From Eledone cirrhosa (taxonomy: Eukaryota): DNA of 64,000 bases. This document shows, piece by piece, positions 23,737-25,604 of the stretch. The stretch is taken from contig OZ024740.1 in NCBI GenBank assembly GCA_964016885.1, positions 315,270,001-315,334,000 on the forward strand, in the 5' to 3' direction. Each line of letters starts with the position of its first letter. Positions within the stretch are counted from its first letter, which is position 1. The translations under genes were made by a program, and so were the position numbers. The notes beneath the pieces are model-generated. The model searched no databases. It was not told the DNA's origin and was given only the letters and a program-made list of their open reading frames with translations.

Positions 23737-25600
23737 ATTTGGATATAATGCTCTGAAATAGCGATATATATGTGAAGACAAACATAGAATATTCGAAAAT
23801 ATTCTGTATGTTTATAATAAACATTTCGAAGACCCAATCGCTATAGAATAGAATACGTCACGTATTACAATTTGAGATTCTCGATAAAAGCAAGGGAAGT
23901 AACCCACGCGTTTCATTCTTATTAGAAATCATCAGGATTACATATCCAGTGCTTTTATCGAGAATGACACAGCTAGAGACTTATAGAATACTTAGCTGTG
24001 TACAGGAACTGGTTTGAAAGAGCGGTTGCCGGTCCGGCAGAAATTAGAATTTGGATATAATGCTCTGAAATAGCGGTATATATGTGAAGACAAACATAGA
24101 ATATTCGAAAATATTCTGTATGTTTATAATAAACATTTCGAAGACCCAATCGCTATAGAATAGAATACGTCACGTATTACAATTTGAGATTCTCGATAAA
24201 AGCAAGGGAAGTAACCTACGCGTTTCATTCTTATTAGAAATCATCAGGATTACATATCCAGTGCTTTTATCGAGAATGACACAGCTAGAGACTTATAGAA
24301 TACTTAGCTGTGTACAGGAACTGGTTTGAAAGAGCGGTTGCCGGTCCGGCAGAAATTAGAATTTGGATATAATGCTCTGAAATAGCGATATATATGTGAA
24401 GACAAACATAGAATATTCGAAAATATTCTGTATGTTTATAATAAACATTTCGAAGACCCAATGGCTATAGAATAGAATACGTCACGTATTACAATTTGAG
24501 ATTCTCGATAAAAGCAAGGGAAGTAACCCACGCGTTTCATTCTTATTAGAAATCATCAGGATTACATATCCAGTGCTTTTATCGAGAATGACACAGCTAG
24601 CGATTGGGTCTTCGAAATGTTTATTATAAACATACAGAATATTTTCGAATATTCTATGTTTGTCTTCACATATATATCGCTATTTCAGAGCATTATATCC
24701 AAATTCTAATTTCTGCCGGACCGGCAACCGCTCTTTCAAACCAGTTCCTGTACACAGCTAAGTATTCTATAAGTCTCTAGCTGTGTCATTCTCGATAAAA
24801 GCACTGGATATGTAATCCTGATGATTTCTAATAAGAATGAAACGCGTGGGTTACTTCCCTTGCTTTTATCGAGAATCTCAAATTGTAATACGTGACGTAT
24901 TCTATTCTATAGCGATTGAGTCTTCGAAATGTTTATTATAAACATACAGAATATTTTCGAATATTCTATGTTTGTCTTCACATATATATCGCTATTTCAG
25001 AGCATTATATCCAAATTCTAATTTCTGCCGGACCGGCAACCGCTCTTTCAAACCAGTTCCTGTACACAGCTAAGTATTCTATAAGTCTCTAGCTGTGTCA
25101 TTCTCGATAAAAGCACTGGATATGTAATCCTGATGATTTCTAATAAGAATGAAACGCGTGGGTTACTTCCCTTGCTTTTATCGAGAATCTCAAATTGTAA
25201 TACGTGACGTATTCTATTCTATAGCGATTGGGTCTTCGAAATGTTTATTATAAACATACAGAATATTTTCGAATATTCTATGTTTGTCTTCACATATATA
25301 TCGCTATTTCAGAGCATTATATCCAAATTCTAATTTCTGCCGGACCGGCAACCGCTCTTTCAAACCAGTTCCTGTACACAGCTAAGTATTCTATAAGTCT
25401 CTAGCTGTGTCATTCTCGATAAAAGCACTGGATATGTAATCCTGATGATTTCTAATAAGAATGAAACGCGTGGGTTACTTCCCTTGCTTTTATCGAGAAT
25501 CTCAAATTGTAATACGTGACGTATTCTATTCTATAGCGATTGGGTCTTCGAAATGTTTATTATAAACATACAGAATATTTTCGAATATTCTATGTTTGTC

Positions 25601-25604
<4 letters not shown>
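23737..25604. repeat. Retrozyme-like tandem array 2 (312-bp unit, inverted at about 24600, 6 hammerhead motifs)
   Basis: Paralogue of the array 1 unit; left arm about 2.8 units (ribozyme on minus), right arm about 3.2 units (plus); TAG microhomology at the junction; (TA)n on both flanks. Confidence 0.92.

Follow-up and report, generated by a model that had tools for sequence, protein, structure and literature searches.

A hammerhead retrozyme array with G at five of six cleavage sites: probable integration of a cleavage-impaired template

Array 2, at 23737-25604 of the 64,000-nucleotide stretch of DNA analysed here (the window), is a non-LTR retrozyme insertion of two inverted arms set in (TA)n. 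Five of its six hammerhead ribozymes read GTG at the cleavage triplet, with GTA at 24217 only, exactly as recorded in an earlier note on this DNA. The most probable explanation, to which a probability of about 0.6 is assigned, is that the template already carried G at the cleavage nucleotide (G17) and integrated anyway, the A at 24217 being one of four private differences of the array.

Organization of array 2

The left arm (23737-24600, minus strand) comprises about 2.8 tandem 312-bp units with its 3' end at the left (TA)n, and the right arm (24598-25604, plus strand) about 3.2 units with its 3' end at monomer position 132, abutting the right (TA)n. The RNA-sense 3' ends of both arms point outward into (TA)n and the 5' ends meet at the centre (24598-24600), where monomer position 241 is joined to 62 over a 3-bp microhomology. 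Over ~840 bp the arms are near-perfect inverted copies. The outer ends fall at monomer positions 132 and 168, and a 36-nt tail (23737-23772, minus strand; monomer positions 133-168) is present at the left end only. The left target microsatellite occupies 23715-23736 (start approximate) and the right one 25605-25640; as both flanks are (TA)n, a target-site duplication (criterion, >4 bp) is not readable there. Just left of the array, a 61-bp direct repeat occurs twice, 522 bp apart (23045-23143 and 23567-23655), with an arm of a 27-bp inverted repeat after each copy.

Non-LTR retrozymes are recognized by tandem repeats of ~150-450 bp with a type I hammerhead in each unit, and by non-coding sequence, G+C below 50% and a highly self-paired monomer, all of which are displayed by array 2. 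No ORF of at least 110 aa in the ORF list of the window overlaps 23737-25604, G+C amounts to 646 of 1868 bp (<50%), and the monomer RNA folds strongly on itself at −74.7 kcal/mol (z = −4.08), with none of 100 shuffles as good. As described in the accessible parts of PMC7229834 and bioRxiv 10.64898/2026.07.22.740005, metazoan non-LTR retrozymes resemble array 2 in their tandem, low-GC, ORF-less units, each with one type I hammerhead, and in the strongly self-paired monomer; array 2 stands apart by its inverted arms with a Penelope-like element (PLE) tail and its G17 in five of six copies. No description of retrozyme arrays with two inverted arms and a PLE tail was found in the accessible part of the open-access literature.

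Hammerhead motifs and the cleavage triplet

Array 2 holds six complete type I hammerheads, one per 312-bp unit. Those of the left arm lie on the minus strand at 23899-23941 (N17 = 23905), 24211-24253 (N17 = 24217) and 24523-24565 (N17 = 24529), and those of the right arm on the plus strand at 24812-24854 (N17 = 24848), 25124-25166 (N17 = 25160) and 25436-25478 (N17 = 25472). Only the copy with N17 at 24217 (T on the plus strand; predicted to slip in register) is GUA and satisfies the NUH rule (H17), which is broken in the five GUG copies. The core elements CUGANGA, GAAA and U16.1 are present in 6/6 copies; helix I has 6 bp, helix II 4 bp and helix III 1 bp with a palindromic loop. U.U stands at the base of stem II, where G10.1-C11.1 is usual, and an internal loop beyond the 6-bp helix I is a candidate region for loop 1-loop 2 contact.

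Across the window 23 hammerhead motifs are observed against 0.10 expected by chance. Rfam yields no hammerhead hit at the gathering score anywhere in the window; Hammerhead_HH9 is found sub-threshold on all six array 2 copies (19-19.9 bits against a gathering score of 52; E 0.1-0.19), and the stretch 10400-11000 of array 1, the comparator of the same family (7934-13180), gives no hammerhead match even below threshold. It is therefore the exact core and the helices that carry the hammerhead assignment, and the core and helix lengths fit the canonical metazoan type I description (PMC4209133, in its accessible part).

According to the available text of PMC7229834, the 1-bp helix III with palindromic tetraloop recurs in HHR_Amex1 of axolotl and newt and the U.U at the base of helix II in HHR_Amex2, and satellite hammerheads of this type work better as dimers. 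Array 2 joins the weak features of both in one motif, plus G17. In the open-access literature on hammerheads, octopus and Penelope elements, nothing was found on the family of arrays 1 and 2.

Among the motifs outside the two arrays, 12 of 14 pattern matches were parsed (23511 and 26007, having no stems, were left out); none of the 12 has G17, and nine have plausible stems. Within the window, one G17 locus is seen, array 2, whereas array 1 and the other parsed motifs are H17. Solitary hammerhead-like motifs of other families, all A17, are located at 3769, 22400, 31705 and 56521 (plus strand) and at 31486 and 36409 (minus strand). An inverted pair of another hammerhead family (7564-7907), with 105-nt arms 99% complementary and a palindromic stem III, lies between (TA)n tracts adjoining array 1; the ATG triplet returned for its copy at 7814 by a stricter parser, with a 3-bp stem, was treated as a mis-parse, the inverted twin reading ATA.

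Array 1 and the third family member

Array 1 is built of 310-bp units in inverted arms of 7.3 and 9.6 units within (TA)n, with a 37-nt tail. Its 15 full units are all identical and its cleavage sites are GTA in 17 of 17 cases (16 complete ribozymes and one truncated at the centre). Its monomer differs from that of array 2 by 14 substitutions and one 2-bp indel, the private variant of the reference unit being excluded. Three of these differences cluster at monomer positions 124-128 (e.g. 25284-25288) and create, possibly by templating, a 6-mer identical to monomer positions 72-77. When both monomers were searched against the window by blastn, the only match accepted outside the arrays was a diverged third member at 34184-34505 (minus strand; ends approximate), 77-79% identical over ~100 bp; a weak match at 28958-29017 was discarded as AT-repeat noise. 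The third member has one hammerhead (parsed as GUU), a longer stem III, a short inverted arm and (TA)n at its left, and its outer ends are unlike those of arrays 1 and 2. An exact-pattern scan of bacterial and archaeal genomes returned no further copies.

Origin of G17 and of the single A17

G17 occurs on both strands and is linked to 13 other array-2-specific substitutions and the 2-bp indel, and hence is not a strand-specific error. Since G stands in both arms, the RNA template probably carried it. An assembly or consensus error as the source of G17 is accordingly given very little credence: palindromic tandem arrays are hard to assemble, but the G is read in both orientations along with the 13 linked substitutions, and array 1 in the same window shows no variation over 15 full units. 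The lone A is the likelier candidate for such an error, the five G less so.

Private differences number four in the 1868 bp of array 2 (24076, 24217, 24463 and 24919), none common to both arms, whereas array 1 has none (5247 bp; P=0.005 by Fisher's test), so that array 2 either has drifted or is noisier. The chance that one among four such differences falls at any of six N17 positions is 1.3% (uniform) to 2.8% (GC-weighted), a post hoc figure computed before requiring a change to A; this low chance hints that 24217 may not be random, and it counts against the preferred reading.

Two origins of the A at 24217 were rejected. Conversion from an array 1-type donor is discordant with the array 2-type bases that persist 2 nt downstream and 15 nt upstream, and copying of one heterogeneous template into both arms with the lack of any shared private variant in any register. 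It is also conceivable, though very improbable, that all six copies were inserted with A17 and that a single G, arisen in DNA, was spread by gene conversion, leaving 24217 as the ancestral copy. A17 is indeed the state of the family, as evident from 17 of 17 sites in array 1, and near-perfect inverted arms of ~840 bp could support exchange; yet the three other private differences have spread to no second copy, so conversion is slow, and five copies on both arms would need several events.

Comparison of the fold between family members

The earlier note had taken the altered but still pairing stem I, the altered loop II and the unchanged core as support for selection on the fold. The differences themselves are as described: stem I reads GTAGTC/GATTAC in the first array and GTAATC/GGTTAC in the second, loop II AACG and AATA, respectively, and the 11 invariant core bases are identical. 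The stem covariation named in the note does not hold, as none of 26 pairs is changed on both sides. Pair 2.2/1.2 of stem I is U-A in array 1 and U.G in array 2, and pair 2.3/1.3, a different one, is G.U in array 1 and A-U in array 2, each change being one-sided. The 5' stem I strand of array 2 is the exact reverse complement of the 3' strand of array 1, so that each array has one wobble pair, at differing positions.

Furthermore, pairing survives seven of the 12 possible stem I transitions (P=0.34 that both of two are of this kind), and the probability that 15 randomly placed differences all avoid the 11 core bases is 0.58. When 14 substitutions were placed at random (20,000 trials), damage of at most 1, the observed value, was obtained in 45% (P=0.45). 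The comparison of array 1 with array 2 thus provides no evidence of selection. When the 34184-34505 element is used as the outgroup, in a test of three sequences only, five of 16 distal stem I pairs are changed on both sides, a number reached in 3 of 500 shuffles. True covariation and selection on the fold of the family are real, but they are visible only against the third member.

Predicted and published effects of G17

Nearest-neighbour folding, which leaves out tertiary contacts, Mg2+ and protein, places C3 and G17 in a pair with a probability of 0.99 in the GUG copies. By the same method, the cost of the cleavage-ready monomer fold is 2.7 kcal/mol for array 1, 4.2 for the 24217 copy and 6.7 for GUG. 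The 24217 copy is itself predicted to pair C3:G1.1 at 0.92, the in-register C2.1:G1.1 pair falling to 0.08 as compared to 0.86 in array 1; the stem I change at 1.2 is thus predicted to be harmful in its own right, through a register slip in the GUA copy. G17 is predicted to extend stem I via C3, so that GUG copies would cleave slowly or hardly, and both self-cleavage and the production of circular RNA by array 2 are predicted to be impaired.

A C3:G17 trap has been proposed in PMC3884650, the accessible text of which reports, from work in vitro and in vivo, that G17 lowers the rate of four tertiary-stabilised hammerheads 8-100-fold and the extent to about half and that these variants ligate normally, and further that the rate of minimal hammerheads falls at least 300-fold. 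The assertion of the earlier note that G17 cleaves poorly is borne out as to rate, 8-100-fold down, but is overstated as a block, about half the extent still being cleaved. Those variants resemble array 2 in the cleavage-site G and the predicted C3:G17 trap; they were engineered, in four monomer-competent ribozymes, whereas array 2 is a natural, dimer-dependent type I case in a fresh multimeric insertion. Natural genomic G17 hammerheads, from genomes rich in wild-type copies, are mentioned there as unpublished data, and the accessible part of PMC3088659 yielded no passage on G17 or GUG.

The alternative offered in the earlier note, a multimer processed at a single site, fares poorly, because the arms lie on opposite strands, with no GUA site in the right one. 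That the multimer was designed or selected for processing at 24217 is highly improbable. A GUG neighbour with intact core could cut the GUA site in a strand-swapped double hammerhead, as may be derived from the dimer model in the accessible part of PMC4209133. But a single cut does not set a monomer free, and a register slip is predicted for the 24217 copy itself. As compared to two monomers, the double hammerhead, on which ribozymes with a 1-bp stem III depend, is favoured by −2.1 kcal/mol in array 1 pairs and disfavoured by +2.1 in 24217 pairs, +4.5 in the mixed GUG/24217 dimer and +6.9 in GUG/GUG pairs. The predicted fold of the read-through transcript, moreover, is for the most part a duplex of the two arms: of its 876 pairs, 830 span more than 120 nt.

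The same energies bear on a further explanation, by which G17 marks a slower yet active subfamily that circularises via residual GUG cleavage and still propagates, the lowered cleavage perhaps even stabilising the template. Retention of ~50% extent and normal ligation by G17 variants (PMC3884650, available text) is in keeping with it, as is the integration of array 2 as multimers in both arms, and the substantial activity kept by tertiary-stabilised G17 ribozymes tells against the preferred reading. The ribozyme, on the other hand, is weak from the start (stem III of 1 bp, basal U.U in stem II), a GUG pair stands 6.9 kcal/mol from the double hammerhead and one G17 locus is seen in the window, and such a subfamily is considered unlikely.

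Possible A-to-I editing of the template

G17 could also have arisen in RNA, if ADAR edited A17 of the retrozyme RNA, slowing its self-cleavage, and the inosine was reverse-transcribed as G in array 2; 24217 would then mark a unit that escaped editing, or an inosine read in another way. This is quite unlikely, though a number of observations agree with it. UAG is a favoured context of ADAR, and A17 lies in U-A-G on an imperfect hairpin of ~30 bp. At five of the 14 substituted positions array 1 has A where array 2 has G; two of these five are in UAG, as compared to five of 91 A's overall (P=0.02, focal site included). On the RNA strand, A/G differences outnumber C/T differences by 7 to 2, with P = 0.18, or 0.05 when composition is considered, a bias that fits editing and counts against the preferred reading. 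With the 34184-34505 element as reference, the changes at positions 78 and 126 run from A to G.

In the accessible parts of the literature, inosine at N17 slows cleavage ~30-fold (PMC3923133) and repeats are widely edited in coleoids (PMC9068888). Among the matches listed for a reverse transcriptase (RT) in the window, the named eukaryotic homologues are cephalopod. Against editing, every A of the perfect 16-bp stem is the same in all copies of both arrays, and no A-to-G is seen at the 17 sites of array 1. The UAG excess depends partly on the focal site, and the strand bias falls short of significance (P=0.05-0.18). A change from CG to TA reflects CpG decay, and the CG versus TA difference in loop II resembles such decay at the DNA level; A-to-G is also tolerated by structured RNA (A-U to G.U). 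Among the matches listed from the open-access literature, none described a hammerhead whose cleavage site is naturally edited. Were editing the cause, RNA editing would regulate a ribozyme-bearing retroelement and rewrite it in the germ line, and cephalopod A-to-I editing would be tied to ribozyme control and heritable sequence change.

Probable insertion by a Penelope-like mechanism

PLE insertions carry an inverted 5'-truncated copy, a tail of 30-40 bp at one end and (TA)n targets (PMC8557442, accessible part). In the available text of PMC11167929, purified PLE protein is shown to nick both strands and to extend them, with reverse transcription starting at two adjacent internal sites, which define the tail; hammerhead catalytic mutants had no effect on insertion in vitro, for the lizard Poseidon element rather than a cephalopod one. 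The marks of PLE insertion in array 2 are its inverted 5'-truncated copies joined at their 5' ends, the tail at one end and the (TA)n target. The tail measures 36 nt in array 2 and 37 nt in array 1, and the short end is position 132 (array 2 numbering) in both. The outer ends of array 1, numbered 130 and 167 on its own monomer, correspond to 132 and 169 on that of array 2, so that the two arrays end at the same two sites, 36-37 nt apart, in mirror arrangement. The 7.3 and 9.6 identical units of array 1 are what would be expected of rolling-circle reverse transcription acting on both strands. No paper on target-primed, inverted, rolling-circle insertion of retrozymes was found in the open-access literature.

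Array 2 shares with PLE insertions (PMC8557442 and PMC11167929, as far as accessible) the hammerhead in a repeat, the inverted copy, the tail and (TA)n; unlike PLEs, it has no RT or GIY-YIG ORF, and array 1 reaches 9.6 perfect units per arm. No GIY-YIG domain (Pfam) was detected among 15 of the 78 listed ORFs of the window. Array 2 seems to work like a PLE passenger and is not an autonomous PLE; it would be a non-autonomous retrozyme moved by the enzyme of a PLE.

Array 2 is best interpreted as a single insertion, the architecture of which is observed, and the enzyme and steps of which would be those of the PLE literature. A Penelope-like RT/endonuclease would nick the (TA)n tract on both strands, two cDNAs would be primed at two internal RNA sites 36 nt apart, and each would extend through about three units until both join at the 3-bp microhomology. 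The template with G17 may have been transcribed from a mutated donor locus and left uncleaved, or may have been a circle from slow GUG cleavage. The A at 24217 would be a later point mutation or polishing noise, without a processing role.

The suggestion of the earlier note that array 2 is a cleavage-impaired variant that integrated is thereby favoured, C3:G17 being predicted at 0.99, G17 being slower in PMC3884650 and cleavage being dispensable in vitro in PMC11167929, in the accessible text of both. G17 is no bar to insertion because cleavage is not required for it and, as hammerhead mutants insert in vitro, integration of an impaired copy is expected rather than paradoxical. Array 2 is probably a dead end for circle production, and makes a minor natural case consistent with in vitro PLE insertion without ribozyme cleavage. 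PLE mobilisation of animal retrozymes has so far been argued from co-occurrence and homology in the accessible literature consulted; the PLE tail, inverted arms and (TA)n on both arrays add direct footprint evidence for it.

Surroundings within the window

A 57-bp near-perfect hairpin with an 80-bp extension (13207-13400) lies between (TA)n tracts immediately right of array 1; it probably stems from another element inserted in truncated, inverted form. A telomere-like, apparently interstitial set of ~260 degenerate TTAGGG repeats (14117-15738 and 13781-13814) lies ~1 kb away from array 1. A broken LINE-like element at 37256-39276 (minus strand) carries RVT_1 (E 2.5e-23) and, downstream, a weak zf-RVT (Pfam); the named eukaryotic homologues of the RT at 38314-39273, in 120 listed of 552 matches, are from Argonauta (70% over half of the query) and Acanthosepion (50%), pointing to a cephalopod host, though only indirectly, as the protein belongs to a mobile element. 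An ORF fragment at 26147-26602 (minus strand) with a DUF4817 helix-turn-helix (E 1e-9) is probably a DNA transposon remnant.
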